From Escherichia phage Av-05: DNA of 64,000 bases. Of the stretch, positions 139 through 6,350 are shown one piece after another. The notes under the pieces are model-generated. The model ran no database searches and was not told where the DNA came from. It saw nothing but the letters and a program-made list of their open reading frames with translations. Position 1 is the first letter of the stretch; every line of letters begins with the position of its first letter. The DNA lies in the sequence record KM190144, one strand, 5' to 3'. Both the position numbers and the translations under genes were made by a program.

Positions 139-170
139 AAAAAAGGCCAAGAGAAATCTTGGCCTTTTTC
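139..170 (-). terminator. Rho-independent terminator-like hairpin (palindromic, usable on both strands)
   Basis: GGCCAAGA-GAAA-TCTTGGCC stem-loop at 145-164 flanked by A-run and T-run; lies downstream of minus gene 496-1215. Confidence 0.5.
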
Positions 171-495
171 TGGGTAAAAATACCCTTTTACTTTTGGTAG
201 GTACTTAAAATAAATGTCTTACTATAGCACAAAGATATTTTTCAAAATGCTACAACTCGACCTTATCATCGACCTATAGATGCTTGCCTTCAGCACAACA
301 CAAGTGTTAACGAATGTTGCGAGTTGACTACACATCGGTCTTCAGGTGCTTCTTTCGGCTATCTATTACTAGACAAAATCCGTCACCATGAACATCTGGC
401 CTTTAAAATACAAAGCGGAGAGTTCTTATACTTACCAAACATAAATCTTTAATATAAGTATACCATACTCTCTATCATAATGCAACAGCCTATGT

Positions 496-1215
496 TTATT
501 CAAAATCATCAACACCGCTATCGGTAAGGTTTTCTCTGCTCGAGGGTTTTGTTGAAAGAACTTGCTCAAGCAGAGAGGAGAATTTCTGCAAATTGCTTAC
601 AGAAGAAGTTCCTGTTGCCATGGCAAGCATATCCACTTCTTTTTCGGTAGGTTGCGTCCAGTCTAGAAACATCTCTTTCATGTACAACGTTGATGTCCCT
701 ATTGGTGTGGCGTGGTCAACCCTATCAGCATAGACCCAGAAAAGAACTTCTTTCTCTATACATACACACAAAGCAGCACCCAACGAGTATCCTGTAACGA
801 GGATCTCGACATTCAGGTCATCCCAGTGAAATACAACACCCAAACACTTCATACCCACAATGTCTTCCACTGCGGGTTTTAGCTCCTCATGGGAAGAAAG
901 GGAGTCATAGTTAATATTCTTTATGAATTTAAGAACGTCTTGGCTGTTGTAGACGCAATCACTATCTCCTTGCTTCCAGTAACCCCAAAATGAAGTCGAC
1001 AAATTCAACCAAAAACTTGCAGTTGTCCCTAATGTCTCAGCCAGTTTTTCAGCCACATCCTCTGTTACTTCTTCCATGTTATATAGGATAGTTCTTAACT
1101 TATTTACAGGTATACCAGATCTGTCGGCAAGATCATCCACACACCAACCTAATGGATCCAGATATTCGTGGATAATAACCTCACCTGGTGACGCTGGTGC
1201 TCTTTCTTTCTGCAT
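496..1215 (-). CDS. HigA-like HTH (XRE) antitoxin-domain protein fused to unknown C-terminal domain
   Basis: N-terminal PGEVIIHEYLDPLGW...LRTILYN...VAEKLAETLGTTASFWLNL matches HigA/VapI antidote pattern; RBS AAGGGGAAAG before ATG at 1215 (track start 1275 lies upstream of hairpin). Confidence 0.5.
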   Translation of the reverse strand: MQKERAPASPGEVIIHEYLDPLGWCVDDLADRSGIPVNKLRTILYNMEEVTEDVAEKLAETLGTTASFWLNLSTSFWGYWKQGDSDCVYNSQDVLKFIKNINYDSLSSHEELKPAVEDIVGMKCLGVVFHWDDLNVEILVTGYSLGAALCVCIEKEVLFWVYADRVDHATPIGTSTLYMKEMFLDWTQPTEKEVDMLAMATGTSSVSNLQKFSSLLEQVLSTKPSSRENLTDSGVDDFE

Positions 1216-1238
1216 TCTTTCCCCTTTTTCTCTACCAG

Positions 1239-1264
1239 AAAACCCTGCAAAGCAGGGTTTTGTT
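1239..1264 (-). terminator. Terminator-like hairpin between Cys-rich gene and HigA-like gene
   Basis: AACCCTGC-AAA-GCAGGGTT perfect stem at 1241-1259, T-rich flank. Confidence 0.4.
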
Positions 1265-1268
1265 ACTA

Positions 1269-1472
1269 TCAGCATTTAGGCGAGCATTTATCGCACGGGC
1301 ATGAAATGCCGTGGAAACACAAACCTGTTCCGTCTTTCTTGACCCCTGTCCCACCACATTGGGGACAACTATCGTGTAAGCATTTTGTTTTTGTTGTCTC
1401 CTCTTCATCTTTATTAAAGAGGTTTTTCATAATCATTTTCTGTTGTTCAATCGTAAACATTTGCGTCCCCAA
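1269..1472 (-). CDS. Small Cys-rich (zinc-ribbon-like) protein
   Basis: 67 aa with CPQCGG...C...CPCDKCSPKC cysteine cluster. Confidence 0.4.
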   Translation of the reverse strand: MGTQMFTIEQQKMIMKNLFNKDEEETTKTKCLHDSCPQCGGTGVKKDGTGLCFHGISCPCDKCSPKC

Positions 1473-1753
1473 AATCTTTCAAGTGCTTCTGCCTCTTCCA
1501 TGTTTGGGAAGATACCATAGAAACAGAACTTACCTTTAGAGAAGTACGGAATAAATACCTGCCCATCAGATGTTTGAAACATCTTGTCAAAATTTGGTAG
1601 CTTCAGGTGGGATTTTATAGCCTCTTTAATACTTTTATCCCATTGATGCTGCCATTTACAGACTTTTAGGTACTCACTAATATTGTAAGAACCTACTCTC
1701 CCCACAATACTGGAAAGAAACTTTTTATTTTTACGAATAATCTTCTTTTTCAC
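1433..1753 (-). CDS. Hypothetical small basic protein (paralog A)
   Basis: GTG start with GAGG RBS; N-terminus KKKIIRKNKKFLSS resembles the next ORF. Confidence 0.4.
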   Translation of the reverse strand: MKKKIIRKNKKFLSSIVGRVGSYNISEYLKVCKWQHQWDKSIKEAIKSHLKLPNFDKMFQTSDGQVFIPYFSKGKFCFYGIFPNMEEAEALERFWGRKCLRLNNRK

Positions 1754-2036
1754 TCAAAGACCTCGTCTCTTCAAACTGCTCTGGTGTCAATAAACTTGTT
1801 CCTACACGACTGCCATTACCACACATAATGGGCACGGCAATCATGTGGCTATCCTTTTCTGCATTACTTAAATCAAGGTACTGCCCATAACGTTTAATAA
1901 GTCGATGTTTCATTTTTGACTTAGCAAAAGCCCTCTCATTATAGAGATAATCCTCAAGGTACAAATGCATTGCGTTTGCGGATTTTAAGGATTTCGATAA
2001 GAATAATTTATTACGCCGTACCAGTTTTTTCTTCAT
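1731..2036 (-). CDS. Hypothetical small basic protein (paralog B)
   Basis: ATG with GAGGG RBS; N-terminus MKKKLVRRNKLFLSK. Confidence 0.4.
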   Translation of the reverse strand: MKKKLVRRNKLFLSKSLKSANAMHLYLEDYLYNERAFAKSKMKHRLIKRYGQYLDLSNAEKDSHMIAVPIMCGNGSRVGTSLLTPEQFEETRSLSEKEDYS

Positions 2037-2221: not shown

Positions 2222-3283
2222 TTAATCATTCATCTTATCCCAGCACATTTGTTGCGCTGTCATCAAAACATCGGCAGCAAAGTTAAGATCTGTTGTCTTC
2301 GGTAAATGCGTGTTCTTGTACAGAGTGTTACGAATATAATCATCCTTCTCTTCTGCCCAAGCCAAGAGCTTCTCCAAAGACCATGCACCATTCCTGATTG
2401 CAAGAAGCTCCTGAGCATCAGGTCTTTTTACTAAGACTTTACCTTCTGCTAAGATCTCCTCAGCCATACGCATCAATCTTACCAAATGGAGGGCATGTTT
2501 GCAATCGTACCCGTACTTTTCTTCTAACTCATGCCGGACCGGATTTCTGTTTTCAACCCATGCCCAGTAGTTCTTATGCTTTTCCTTCGCTTGTTTATGG
2601 TCATCTGCCAGATATTTAACGATTAAAATTGGCTTACGTTTCTTATCCTCGTCAGAGAACTGCTCGTATGGAACTTTACGAATAGAACCATCAGAGTTAA
2701 ACAAACCAGCGTTGTCATGTGTACCAATCACACCATAGATATTATCACCCATCGGCAAAAAGACACACAACTTATTAAGGTCATCCAGCATTTTCTGGAA
2801 GTCTTTATGTTTTGTAAGATTATCATCCATCCACGAGTGTGTCAAGCGCATGAACTCTTTTTGTGTTGGTTGCTCTTTAGGTTGCGGGTTATTAATCCAT
2901 TTATTATGGCCTTTGATACGCTTAAGTTGCGCCATCGCGTACCCAGAAAATGTAAAAGCAACTTTGCTTGATAGAAGTTTTGGCGCTTGCTCGCGTAGGT
3001 ACTCGTAAACATCTGAAGTTTGCAGAATGTCACCTCTATCAACAAACATAAGCTCGATAATGTTTGGGTTCATATCAACGAACAGCTTCATATAGTTTGT
3101 TAGCTCATACAGCTTACCATCCTCTTCATCAATAAGAGTCATCTCCCTGTCAACGAAAAATGGGGTAAGAATGCTTTTAGGCTCTGCACAATAAATTCCG
3201 CGAATATCCACATCGGATGTTGGCAAGTTAGTTCCATAGGCAATACTGCCGGAGTAACAACGCATTAGTTCTAGTTTCTTCAT
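2222..3283 (-). CDS. Pol-beta superfamily nucleotidyltransferase
   Basis: N-terminal GSIAYGTNLPTSDVDIRG (GS...hG[ST]...SDxD minimal NTase motif); 353 aa. Confidence 0.5.
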   Translation of the reverse strand: MKKLELMRCYSGSIAYGTNLPTSDVDIRGIYCAEPKSILTPFFVDREMTLIDEEDGKLYELTNYMKLFVDMNPNIIELMFVDRGDILQTSDVYEYLREQAPKLLSSKVAFTFSGYAMAQLKRIKGHNKWINNPQPKEQPTQKEFMRLTHSWMDDNLTKHKDFQKMLDDLNKLCVFLPMGDNIYGVIGTHDNAGLFNSDGSIRKVPYEQFSDEDKKRKPILIVKYLADDHKQAKEKHKNYWAWVENRNPVRHELEEKYGYDCKHALHLVRLMRMAEEILAEGKVLVKRPDAQELLAIRNGAWSLEKLLAWAEEKDDYIRNTLYKNTHLPKTTDLNFAADVLMTAQQMCWDKMND

Positions 3284-3642
3284 TGTTGTACCTTTTTGTC
3301 TTTTCTTGCATTATCCCAAAAATTAAGGATATTTTGGTAACGGATTTTGTCTTCCATATATTCAGCTTCATCACGAAGACCACATACATGGTCTATTAAG
3401 GCACATACTTCATTATGGTATTCTGTGCCACTCGTGATGTGTTTAATCATACAAGATCCTGCTTTCCATTTCGAGAGGGAGTATCTCAGATTATCATCTT
3501 TTTCTGTGGGGAAAGCATCAACAAGCACCTTTGCTCTATTCCCTTGTATCGTTTGCACTGTTCCTCGGCGCAGTTCGTTATTACCCCAATAGATAAATAC
3601 TGTATCGCCAACAAATAATCTTGTTCCGCTTGCATCCCTCAT
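3280..3642 (-). CDS. Hypothetical protein
   Basis: ORF in track (3280-3660); GGGGG RBS before ATG at 3642. Confidence 0.4.
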   Translation of the reverse strand: MRDASGTRLFVGDTVFIYWGNNELRRGTVQTIQGNRAKVLVDAFPTEKDDNLRYSLSKWKAGSCMIKHITSGTEYHNEVCALIDHVCGLRDEAEYMEDKIRYQNILNFWDNARKDKKVQQ

Positions 3643-3643
3643 T

Positions 3644-3988
3644 TTATGCCCCCAACACAAAGAAATAATGAACTGTTACCGCTGCAAAGTAAAGCGTTTT
3701 GGAAATCAATCGTAGCCAGCAATCTCTGTTTGTATACACTTTTCCTGCTAAGATATTACTCCCTGTTACGATATTTCCCCACAGCCACACAACAAACAAG
3801 AATGCTCCGAGCAAACCACTTGTCGGTGGTGTTAATGTAGTAATCATCGCAATACCTTCGAGGGTGGCGAATATGAAGAAGTATGGAAATGCCTCCCTTA
3901 CACATTTTATTCCTTTGCCAGTAATGCAGGTATTAACTAAACCTATAAGACAAAATATCGTCCAAAGCACATACAATGTATAAACCAT
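3644..3988 (-). CDS. Membrane protein
   Basis: 114 aa, multiple hydrophobic segments. Confidence 0.4.
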   Translation of the reverse strand: MVYTLYVLWTIFCLIGLVNTCITGKGIKCVREAFPYFFIFATLEGIAMITTLTPPTSGLLGAFLFVVWLWGNIVTGSNILAGKVYTNRDCWLRLISKTLYFAAVTVHYFFVLGA

Positions 3989-4053
3989 AATCCACTTAAC
4001 CCCAAAAATGTTAACCTCTCCAAACCTATCAGAGAGGTTTCAAAAATAATCTA

Positions 4054-4551
4054 CTACTCACCTTTTAGCTTAAAACTTTTCAATGTTTTGATAAAGTCTT
4101 TCTCCGCTGGTGTGTAAGTGTGTACGAAACCTGTCTCTTCGCAGGTGTAGGTATCATTAACCTCCATTGCGTGTGGAGGGATAAATGCACCATCAGGAAC
4201 AGACTTATATTCCGGGTTGTAGATAAATTCCGGCAGCACAACAGCTACAGCAGTCATTGCCCCATTCAAGGCTTTCTTTTCTTCACGCCACCAAGCCACA
4301 GGGTAGGTTTGTAAAGACATTGCCTGATCAAGAAAATCTTCAAGCACGGACTGATAACCACCATTCAAAACAATAATGGTCTTATCTTCTTCTTTCCAGC
4401 ATTTCAGCCAATGGTGTGCAGTGATCTGCTCTGGTGTATATGCTTCACCACTATGCAAAACCATAAGCTCTGCAATGGCGTGTGCTGATTGGATACCTGC
4501 ATGGATACCGCAGATATACTGGTTAACAATACAATACATTCTTGTTTTCAT
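4054..4551 (-). CDS. PTH2-like (peptidyl-tRNA hydrolase 2 family) domain protein
   Basis: GIHAGIQSAHAIA and W..W...DKTIIVLNG resemble PTH2 core motifs (GKGKxAAQCSHAA; KVVLK); by-eye only. Confidence 0.35.
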   Translation of the reverse strand: MKTRMYCIVNQYICGIHAGIQSAHAIAELMVLHSGEAYTPEQITAHHWLKCWKEEDKTIIVLNGGYQSVLEDFLDQAMSLQTYPVAWWREEKKALNGAMTAVAVVLPEFIYNPEYKSVPDGAFIPPHAMEVNDTYTCEETGFVHTYTPAEKDFIKTLKSFKLKGE

Positions 4552-4766
4552 TTTTGTTTCTTCCTCAAAATTATCCGTTCAGGACTGAAAAATTCTTTCA
4601 AACACAGGAAGATGGCTAATGCGCCACCCAACCACCAAAAAGGTATCAACAGCAAAGCAGGTATTAAGTCCTCTCCTGTGATACAATCCTGTGTTTTATA
4701 GGTCATGGTAAGAAATACACCTGCTGCTACTATCCCAGCAACCACATACAAGATCAGTTCAATCAT
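4548..4766 (-). CDS. Small membrane protein
   Basis: 72 aa, two hydrophobic helices. Confidence 0.4.
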   Translation of the reverse strand: MIELILYVVAGIVAAGVFLTMTYKTQDCITGEDLIPALLLIPFWWLGGALAIFLCLKEFFSPERIILRKKQK

Positions 4767-5079
4767 TATCCCGTTTCTCCAGAAACGCTTTCACCGCAAG
4801 AGCCGCAGCGTAAATTGCCACAAGACAAATACAAAATGTGAAAATAATAGGTAAAACCATTACCGCAAACATCATAAACAGTGGTCCTGCAACAGTAACG
4901 AATGCTGTTCCAAGCAACAATAGAAATACCACATATTTATCTGCCGTCTCATCCACCTTCTTAAGATACACACCTAAACACACAGAAGACAACAGGAATG
5001 ACAGAATGGACAGCAATAGATACCAATTATCAATAAAGATGATAATTGGACCAGCAACATTTTCTAGCCACCACATCAT
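4759..5079 (-). CDS. Membrane protein
   Basis: 106 aa, strongly hydrophobic. Confidence 0.4.
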   Translation of the reverse strand: MMWWLENVAGPIIIFIDNWYLLLSILSFLLSSVCLGVYLKKVDETADKYVVFLLLLGTAFVTVAGPLFMMFAVMVLPIIFTFCICLVAIYAAALAVKAFLEKRDND

Positions 5080-5093
5080 ATATACTTACCTCT

Positions 5094-6350
5094 TTAGAAT
5101 AACATATCTCTGCTGATTGCTTTACGAATAGCATCAATACGGGCTACTCGCACAGCCTCACCAATCTCTTTACCCTTCTTACCTTTTTCCAGAAGGGGTT
5201 TTGTTATAGCTTTAGAATCAACTTTTGTCATAGCGTCGTAGGCTTCCAACAAAATATGACCCTGAGGATAAGGTTTATGTCTAAAATCACCACCTCTCCC
5301 TTTAGCATCACAATAACACGCATCTGCAAGTGTGTAAACCTTTATTTTCTGATCAGCTTGTCCAGCAGCTTCAAATATTTTCATGATGCTTTTTGGTTTC
5401 AAACCGTTGTTACCATCTTTGGGGGAGATGGCGTGCACTTTTGTGTGATTTTCCGCAACATATTTTGCCGTGTCACGATAGATATTATAAATCTTCAACC
5501 TTTCACACAAGGATTGGATAACATCTACACCAGCTTTTTCATGACCATGAAGATTACCATTGTCCTTATGAGTCACAGCTTTGCCAAAATCATGGCACAG
5601 CACAGCAAACTTGGTCAGTGGATCAGCTCCTAATTCATCAGCAACCCGTAACGCTAGAATTGTATGGGTGTAAGCATCCCCTTCTGGGTGATGTTCTTTA
5701 GGTTGTTGCACACCACGTAGGGCTTCCAGTTCAGGGAGTTCGCCAATACGTCCCATATTGACAGCAAAAGATCTGAAATAACCACTCTTTAAGGCTTTCA
5801 ACATTTCCTTCCATTTACGCTCGGCGCTTATTTCTGCCAAAGAGTGTCGGTTGTCATAAGCCAGTTTAAAAGTTTCTGGATGGATATGCCATTCTTCCCC
5901 AAGCTGGGCTTTAAATCTAAACAGGCGTAGAATACGTAATGGATCTTCAATAAATGCCTGTGATGTATGACGTAATGTTTTAAGTCCTAAGTCAACCTGA
6001 CCACCAAAAGGATCTATAATTTCACCACTCTCAACATCCATCGCCATGGAATTGATGGTTAGGTCTCTACGTGCCAAATCCTCTTCCAGAGTTACATCTG
6101 GACTAAAGCATACCTCAAATCCTTTATGGCCTTCACCTGTTTTTCTTTCTGTGCGTGCAAGAGCGTACTCTTCTCTTGTTTCTGGGTGAAGATAAACTGG
6201 AAAAGATGCGCCAACTTGTGTGAACCCTCTTTTCAACATCTCTTCATGCGTAGCACCAACAACCACATAATCACGGTCTGATATTTCACGACCTAACAAT
6301 TTATCTCTTACTGCGCCACCTACCAAGTATACCTTCATTTCTTCGCCCAC
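5094..6350 (-). CDS. cca: tRNA nucleotidyltransferase (CCA-adding enzyme) with HD domain
   Basis: MKVYLVGGAVRDKLLG...DRD head motif, RRDLTINS, HD motif HHPEGDAYTHT...CHDFGK; probable ATG at 6338 (track GTG 6350). Confidence 0.8.
   Translation of the reverse strand: MGEEMKVYLVGGAVRDKLLGREISDRDYVVVGATHEEMLKRGFTQVGASFPVYLHPETREEYALARTERKTGEGHKGFEVCFSPDVTLEEDLARRDLTINSMAMDVESGEIIDPFGGQVDLGLKTLRHTSQAFIEDPLRILRLFRFKAQLGEEWHIHPETFKLAYDNRHSLAEISAERKWKEMLKALKSGYFRSFAVNMGRIGELPELEALRGVQQPKEHHPEGDAYTHTILALRVADELGADPLTKFAVLCHDFGKAVTHKDNGNLHGHEKAGVDVIQSLCERLKIYNIYRDTAKYVAENHTKVHAISPKDGNNGLKPKSIMKIFEAAGQADQKIKVYTLADACYCDAKGRGGDFRHKPYPQGHILLEAYDAMTKVDSKAITKPLLEKGKKGKEIGEAVRVARIDAIRKAISRDMLF

Follow-up and report, generated by a model that had tools for sequence, protein, structure and literature searches.

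A HigA-type helix-turn-helix fused to a phrog_19128-type protein in the rV5-like Escherichia phage Av-05: a candidate counter-defence protein

The stretch of DNA analyzed here (64,000 nucleotides of Escherichia phage Av-05, record KM190144; hereafter the window) belongs to a virulent, rV5-like phage of the Vequintavirinae that is approximately 90% identical to Escherichia phage vB_EcoM_TH18 (TH18) over the first 6 kb. At positions 496..1215 its minus strand carries an open reading frame (ORF) for a protein of 239 amino acids (ATG at 1215-1213, stop codon at 498-496, as read from the ORF list and the sequence). In this protein an unusually acidic HigA/VapI/YbaQ-type XRE helix-turn-helix (HTH; residues 1-76, positions 988..1215) is followed by a short linker, WGYWKQGDSDCVYN (residues 77-90, positions 946..987), and by a phrog_19128-type domain (residues 91-239, positions 499..945; hereafter the C-domain), all on the minus strand. 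An earlier note, made from the letters of the window, had described a HigA-like antitoxin HTH fused to a domain it did not recognize and had proposed the protein as a candidate counter-defence factor. The fusion gene is real and conserved, and its origin as a lineage-specific fusion of a HigA-type HTH onto a phrog_19128 protein, in the TH18-like branch of the Vequintavirinae, is well supported.

The gene has its own ribosome-binding site (RBS), as the note had claimed: a Shine-Dalgarno-like AAGGGG at 1221..1226 (minus strand), 5 nucleotides ahead of the ATG. RBS and start codon are kept in relatives, the RBS reading AGGAG/AGGGG in TH18 and in the metagenome phage contig L009. The gene was also said to sit between two hairpins, which holds for the upstream side only. 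There, between the fusion gene and the preceding gene for a 67-residue protein, a perfect 10-bp stem with a 3-nucleotide loop followed by TTTT (1239..1261, minus strand; AAAACCCTGC-TTT-GCAGGGTTTT) is conserved in TH18 and L009, occurs once in the 64-kb window and is probably a leaky terminator or attenuator. Immediately 3' of the stop codon, the window has no hairpin, unlike TH18, in which a hairpin directly follows the stop codon of the homologue. The first terminator 3' of the gene is a strong bidirectional intrinsic terminator at 139..170 (minus strand; 14-bp stem and a T run), located 326 nucleotides past the stop codon, behind an inserted RNA-like element. A promoter scan with the sigma-70 consensus only found none upstream of the fusion gene. 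No repeated operator-like palindrome lies near it either, the sole palindrome being the terminator-like stem at 1239-1261.

The N-terminal domain was assigned from the curated HigA model and from matches to solved structures. Residues 5-74 match the NCBI model TIGR02607 (antidote_HigA) with 58.7 bits (E 3.7e-16) against a curated cut-off of 47.7 bits, and solved HigA-family chains align with this part; the HigA/VapI antidote signature recognized previously by eye is thus borne out, and the two motifs quoted for it, PGEVIIHEYLDPLG and TTASFWLNL, are both present in the ORF. Among Protein Data Bank (PDB) sequences, with E values from 1e-11 to 1e-7, the domain matches, without large gaps, E. coli YbaQ (2eby, E 1.3e-11), Coxiella VapI (3trb), P. 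putida GraA (6f8s/6f8h), 3cec and HigA (2icp/4mcx/6jpi), the YbaQ-like proteins being the closest subfamily. The whole fusion protein is assigned to PHROG 1381, "plasmid antitoxin with HTH domain", and the HTH also matches, weakly, PHROG families of transcriptional regulators; with the generic Pfam models HTH_3 and HTH_26 the protein scores under threshold. The best identities of the HTH, 33-41%, are to bacterial, plasmid and phage HigA proteins. A word-indexed search of a large protein index with the N-terminal domain returned only fragments of the same fusion protein and no close bacterial relative.

In several respects the protein departs from the HigA family. At 239 residues, it lies outside the family's usual size (~95-140 amino acids, with dimerization through helices 4/5). 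HigA of P. aeruginosa (PaHigA) dimerizes through helices 4 and 5, its extended helix 5 forming the dimer (PMC6987408). The HigA homology of the fusion protein ends at residue 76, ahead of this extended helix; the dimer-forming extension is therefore absent. Two features set the HTH itself apart, its acidity and the lost basic patch. The HTH core, with only four Lys/Arg, has a net charge of -8, compared with 0 to -2 in the aligned core of YbaQ, VapI, GraA and 3cec; the whole fusion protein has a net charge of -21 and an isoelectric point (pI) of 4.4. Residues 45-49, which precede the conserved (I/V/L)-(T/S) that comes after the recognition helix, read YNMEE and hold no Lys or Arg, whereas all seven homologues compared (YbaQ, VapI, 3cec, PaHigA, GraA, gp216 of the Klebsiella phage FBKp24 and a plasmid HigA) have at least one Arg/Lys at this place, the aligned segments being NNNRK, NGARS, NGQRS, REQRG, RERGG and DGKSK. 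NMEE thus stands where homologues have NNRK/GARS/GQRS. In PaHigA, Thr40, Asp43 and Arg49 are essential, and the alanine mutants lose operator binding (PMC6987408); the equivalents in the fusion protein, by gap-free alignment with transferred numbering, are Lys39, Thr42 and Glu48.

The C-domain (residues ~91-239) matches nothing in Pfam, NCBIfam, PADLOC or, by sequence, the PDB, in keeping with the earlier statement that it showed no recognizable motif. It is, however, not unique but a diverged copy of a stand-alone phrog_19128 protein, as established by the phrog_19128 match, tblastn, alignment and AlphaFold modeling. Its tblastn relatives are stand-alone hypothetical proteins of 160-168 amino acids from Seunavirus phages, 25-29% identical (PVP-SE1 gp172, GAP31_104, 4MG gp179 and SSE121 gp155), all of them members of phrog_19128. 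With the single sequence as query, the phrog_19128 match spans residues 151-220 only. Against a profile of the phrog_19128-type family, the fused protein (P0002) matches at 1e-49 over profile positions 1-163, the source alignment of that profile already containing the C-domains of the window and TH18. Thirteen alignment columns are invariant between the C-domain and the stand-alone homologues, including Y..MF....PT..E..ML.M..G. The family is small: only 8 representatives, just one of them a fusion, came out of an exhaustive profile search through 1.84 billion representative proteins, and clustering of the family at 90% gave 23 clusters, about ten of them on phage-sized contigs of ~137-150 kb and many others on short fragments.

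For the C-domain alone (26 sequences), AlphaFold gave a confident model, with a predicted local distance difference test score (pLDDT) of 83.7 and a predicted template-modeling score (pTM) of 0.77. The predicted fold consists of three helices, a six-stranded antiparallel sheet, two helices and an acidic tail. As modeled, it is not of the RelE/HigB type, and it may extend to more phages than sequence searches reveal. In the viral structure library BFVD, the best Foldseek match to the model is the SSE121 homologue, with a template-modeling (TM) score of 0.72; the structure search gave no relative in the PDB and no match strong enough for a fold family to be assigned. The C-domain has a net charge of -13, while its stand-alone homologues are near neutral (pI 5.9-7.8), and the fusion has an acidic tail in place of their last ~25 residues, which form a strand. 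An ImmA/IrrE-type peptidase was considered as the partner domain and rejected, there being no HEXXH motif and no Pfam match.

Two further observations concern this domain. Two uncharacterized BFVD entries of 149 and 167 amino acids, K9L3T6 (Pectobacterium phage phiTE) and A0A8T8L6Q7, resemble the C-domain fold at 13-14% identity (Foldseek probability 0.90-0.99, TM 0.46-0.56). TH18 and metagenome homologues, 246 amino acids long, have a 7-residue loop segment, ARYPSIV, which the window protein lacks (it would fall at ~795, between its residues 139 and 140); a third variant of 243 amino acids has a different loop at this spot, which joins two strands of the C-domain sheet and is variable in length.

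Full-length homologues of the fusion are confined to the TH18-like lineage, where they occur in four GenBank records and four metagenome clusters with more than 100 member sequences, at 92-96% amino acid identity to the window protein. At least four different full-length variants keep the frame intact, and there is one truncated variant (P0004) besides. In pairwise comparisons among the window, TH18 and one metagenome contig, the N-terminal part has a ratio of nonsynonymous to synonymous substitution rates (dN/dS) of 0.05-0.12 and the C-terminal part one of 0.11-0.20, the overall ratio being 0.10-0.14 and dS reaching 0.42; both halves are therefore maintained by purifying selection, which is stronger on the HTH than on the C-domain. 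The stand-alone homologues start aligning at fusion residue ~91, and the added piece thus comprises the HTH (1-76) and the 14-residue linker, the latter lying between the end of the HigA homology and the start of the stand-alone homology. A derivation of the HTH from the gene upstream in Seunavirus, gp171, was dismissed, as the two have no similarity.

The genomic position agrees with this origin. The stand-alone homologue is always found at the end of an operon running from a CCA-adding enzyme through DUF7205 to an RlaP-type nucleotidyltransferase, beyond which come a terminator and a convergent gene. The fusion gene occupies the same site, as the last gene of a leftward operon downstream of an RlaP-type nucleotidyltransferase (2222-3283). 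The same operon, on the minus strand throughout, contains DUF7205 (3280-3660), a hydrolase of phrog_3668 (4054-4551; Pfam PTH2 below the cut-off, 19.1 bits versus 23) and a CCA tRNA nucleotidyltransferase (5094-6350), and the cluster at 2222-6350 may be a toolkit for tRNA/RNA damage repair. Directly 5' of the fusion gene lies the gene for the Cys-rich 67-residue protein, a member of phrog_17149 (1269-1472, minus strand). Further upstream are two adjacent, overlapping paralogous genes for proteins of 106 and 101 amino acids (1433-1753 and 1731-2036, minus strand), both of phrog_12809 (E 1e-3 and 2e-39), which look like a tandem duplication, and the upstream genes also include one for a 72-residue protein. 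The annotation of TH18 has only one of the two phrog_12809 paralogues. The 67-residue protein contains CPQCGGTG, a CxxCxGxG motif resembling the DnaJ zinc-finger repeat, and in contig L009 a 1-nucleotide deletion alters its C-terminus.

None of the eight upstream genes of the operon belongs to a toxin family by Pfam and PHROGs (four of them also by PADLOC). The 552 stop-to-stop frames of the window with 45 codons or more gave no phmmer match to a plasmid RelE/ParE toxin (best E 1.6), and the downstream side of the fusion gene is non-coding. The fusion gene is not half of a toxin-antitoxin pair.

Taking the domain analysis and the locus together, we tentatively and only slightly favor a reading in which the acidic HigA module acts as a toxin decoy through protein binding. 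A HigA/YbaQ-type HTH (1-76) with a short linker was grafted onto the N-terminus of a conserved phrog_19128 accessory protein. Both halves would then have turned strongly acidic, and the HTH would have lost the basic residues beyond its recognition helix as well as the C-terminal dimerization helix of HigA. Remodeled in this way, the HTH may work mainly by binding protein rather than as an operator-bound repressor. Its likeliest partner would be a basic toxin of the RelE/ParE/HigB type, encoded by the host or by host plasmids, and an orphan antitoxin decoy of this kind could blunt toxin-mediated abortive infection. The phage-specific domain would provide a stable folded body or an oligomerization surface. 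The acidity and the lost basic patch constitute some argument against a classical operator-binding repressor and thus modestly favor the counter-defence role. We also count for the decoy the HigA membership above the curated cut-off with its alignments to solved antitoxins, the stronger purifying selection on the HTH, the end of the HigA homology ahead of the dimer-forming helix, the homology and synteny of the C-domain with the stand-alone proteins, the lack of a promoter (sigma-70 scan) or operator-like palindrome upstream and the neighbors of RNA-repair type (RlaP, the sub-cut-off PTH2 and the CCA-adding enzyme). A YbaQ-like HigA on enterobacterial ColE1-type plasmids is 36.5% identical to the HTH and adjoins a RelE/ParE toxin (WP_001183575.1).

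Several points weigh against the decoy. The target toxin cannot be named, because no toxin is encoded nearby and identity to HigA proteins does not exceed ~41%. Antitoxin-toxin pairing is highly specific. The N-terminal domain has no close relative outside the fusion and is therefore not a recently captured host antitoxin, and YbaQ, its top structural match, was deposited as a putative regulator. The recognition helix retains Asn38, Lys39, Arg41 and Thr42, residue types that typically contact DNA, and acidity by itself is weak evidence. The stand-alone homologues work without an HTH, so that the C-domain may be the real effector, unrelated to toxins. The full-length AlphaFold model, finally, is poor (pLDDT 57.6), with low pLDDT in linker residues 77-90 and an unreliable N-terminal half; the weakness of that half is due to the shallow alignment there and to the misplacement by MAFFT of the first residues of the stand-alone proteins.

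The retained recognition helix is one of the reasons to consider, as the second-ranked and somewhat doubtful explanation, a DNA-binding transcription factor, in which the HTH would sit on a phage or host operator and the C-domain would dimerize or sense a ligand or protein, as in one-component regulators. All characterized HigA-family proteins bind DNA (PMC6987408), and both the naming of YbaQ and the weak matches to PHROG regulator families point the same way. Moreover, with HigA's own dimerization helix missing, a replacement oligomerization domain would make sense. Against such a regulator stand the charge of the HTH core and its mere four Lys/Arg, together with Glu48-Glu49 at positions where homologues have Arg/Lys, including the essential Arg of PaHigA. 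The gene, besides, has neither a promoter nor a repeated palindrome near it, its one terminator-like palindrome being unique in the 64 kb, and the C-domain family is free of HTHs in all other lineages, which is not typical of a regulator's sensor domain.

If instead the C-domain is the active part, the protein could be a self-regulating effector of the AcrIIA1 type, with the phrog_19128 domain serving in host takeover or anti-defence, the HTH providing autoregulation or a tether, and no toxins involved. HTH-effector fusions do exist among anti-CRISPRs (AcrIIA1, AcrIIA13-15), the C-domain is the ancestral conserved part of the locus, and HigA-type HTHs have been joined independently to an unrelated partner domain in gp216 of the Klebsiella jumbo phage FBKp24. 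We rank this explanation third and consider it unlikely: the sigma-70 scan found no promoter or operator of the gene's own, the HTH looks, by its residues, poorly suited to DNA binding, phrog_19128 is without functional characterization, and its structural matches are too weak for a fold family. That the fusion is a decaying or functionless passenger, born of chance read-through of two genes, is highly improbable. Its restriction to one narrow lineage and the missing functional assignment would fit such a passenger, but the low dN/dS in both halves at dS of up to 0.42, the intact frames and the conserved RBS and start codon do not. Toxin decoy, plain regulator and effector cannot be separated by sequence alone, and the decoy is retained here as the slightly preferred of the three.

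The region between the fusion gene and the terminator holds an insert (171..485, minus strand) that does not belong to the protein. It comprises an extended -10 promoter-like site on the fusion-gene strand (TTGCAT-17-TGgTATACT at 485-457) and an RNA-like element of ~310 nucleotides running to the terminator at 139-170. The ~330 nucleotides between the stop codon of the fusion gene and the terminator, in front of the convergent gene, are absent from TH18. The element is shared at 94-96% identity by the metagenome phage contigs L009 and L010 and is 89-97% identical to enterobacterial plasmid sequences, in which the terminator is identical as well. Its carriers are IncF-type plasmids (E. coli, E. 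albertii), a 4.6-kb ColE1-type Klebsiella plasmid and one 6.4-kb contig of a metagenome-assembled genome; no match was found in GenBank phages or IMG/VR. The element has no conserved ORF (an internal ORF of 19 codons is not conserved in the Klebsiella copy), no tRNA and no Rfam family above threshold. Its fold z-score is -7.5 with terminators, largely because of the terminator hairpins, compared with -2.7 for the core and -1.2 for the opposite strand. Covariation, with one compensatory pair among the copies, is uninformative since the copies are too similar. Overall, there is moderate evidence for a structured RNA. An identity with RNAI/RNAII was rejected, as the small plasmid has its RNAI at a separate place.

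The element is, in each of the four plasmid contexts, convergent with a two-gene operon for proteins of 131 and 279 amino acids, neither of which has a match in Pfam, NCBIfam, PADLOC, PHROG or the PDB. This plasmid module (L016, 2197-4090; L013, 2126-4026; L015, 3142-4616, wrapping to 1-88; L019, 1642-3574) makes up the sole cargo of the ColE1-type Klebsiella plasmid of 4.6 kb. It may be a toxin/RNA or defence system that has yet to be described. Antisense pairing of the RNA-like element to the mRNA of the plasmid operon was not beyond chance (best duplex -35.8 kcal/mol versus a shuffled mean of -39.7). Of this module, the phage has the RNA-like part alone. By analogy, an RNA part copied alone into a virulent phage would recall the hijacking of an RNA antitoxin, which we offer as a hypothesis. 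Taken further, the 3' end of the operon could be a two-part counter-defence islet, in which a HigA-derived module, no longer a repressor and fused to a stable phage-specific domain, acts in trans as a decoy for RelE/HigB-type toxins of the host or of plasmids and is accompanied, in the lineage of the window, by a structured RNA of ~310 nucleotides, copied from the plasmid module, which the phage would express to neutralize or mislead that module (hijack of an RNA antitoxin or cofactor, cf. the pseudo-ToxI of PhiTE); this is a long shot.

For orphan antitoxin homologues of phages and plasmids, an anti-defence role has often been proposed (in the case of plasmids, PMC11541004), and few of them have been tested so far. 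The fusion protein offers a clean test case, being encoded by a virulent phage without a toxin partner and having an HTH apparently reshaped away from DNA binding; the stand-alone gp172-type proteins of related phages are a natural "minus-HTH" control. Were it to neutralize a RelE/HigB-type toxin, phages would be seen to make stable decoys from antitoxin modules by domain fusion. Were it not to, there would still be a first entry point to the function of a protein that one genus, Seunavirus, of the therapeutically used rV5/PVP-SE1 group conserves. The adjacent plasmid-derived RNA, for its part, may hint at an as yet undescribed module of protein plus RNA carried by enterobacterial plasmids. 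What is new is a HigA-family HTH whose DNA-binding face is atypically acidic and which is part of an unusual, phage-specific fusion, a reasonable but unproven candidate for a counter-defence role. Nothing specific turned up in searches of the literature on HigA fusions in phages, on the phrase of the PHROG annotation or on the accessions of the plasmid proteins.

Of the known systems, the HigA/VapI/YbaQ family (TIGR02607, COG3093; 2EBY, 3TRB, 6F8S, 6JPI, 4MCX) shares with fusion residues 1-76 the PGE...FWLNL signature, above the cut-off, and the fusion protein has the acidity common among antitoxins. Unlike members of that family, it has no adjacent HigB/RelE toxin gene and no C-terminal dimerization helix, carries Glu-Glu in place of the basic patch and an unrelated domain of 150 amino acids, and is encoded by a virulent phage. 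With PVP-SE1 gp172, GAP31_104, 4MG gp179 and SSE121 gp155 it has in common ~150 homologous residues, the predicted fold and the position at the operon end, and it is set apart from them by the low identity (25-29%), by a C-domain charge of -13 versus about 0, by the acidic tail and by the N-terminal HTH.

The closest parallel in architecture is gp216 of the Klebsiella jumbo phage vB_KpM_FBKp24 (L018, 1084-1806; 240 amino acids, "plasmid antitoxin with HTH domain"), which likewise comes from a virulent phage and combines a HigA-type HTH, 36% identical, with an extra domain and no adjacent toxin. In gp216 the order is reversed, the HTH coming after an unrelated N-terminal domain of 139 residues, and basic residues are kept behind the recognition helix (GKSK). 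From this independent fusion, we infer that HigA-HTH fusions recur in lytic phages. A relationship between the C-domain and the partner domain of gp216 was rejected (hhalign probability 0.1%). The HTH of gp216 is shared by related ~300-kb Klebsiella/Serratia phages.

The higBA-type pairs of the Escherichia phage-plasmid D6 (orf70/orf71) and of small enterobacterial plasmids have an HTH of the same PHROG 1381, 32-37% identical; theirs, however, are antitoxins of 112-118 amino acids encoded directly downstream of the toxin gene and serve plasmid maintenance. Phage mimics of antitoxins, such as T4 Dmd and the pseudo-ToxI RNA of PhiTE, allow a virulent phage to supply an antitoxin in trans against toxin-mediated abortive infection. 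Dmd (cited in PMC11879866) and pseudo-ToxI have no sequence or structural relationship to the fusion protein, and what they share with it is the logic proposed here for its action.

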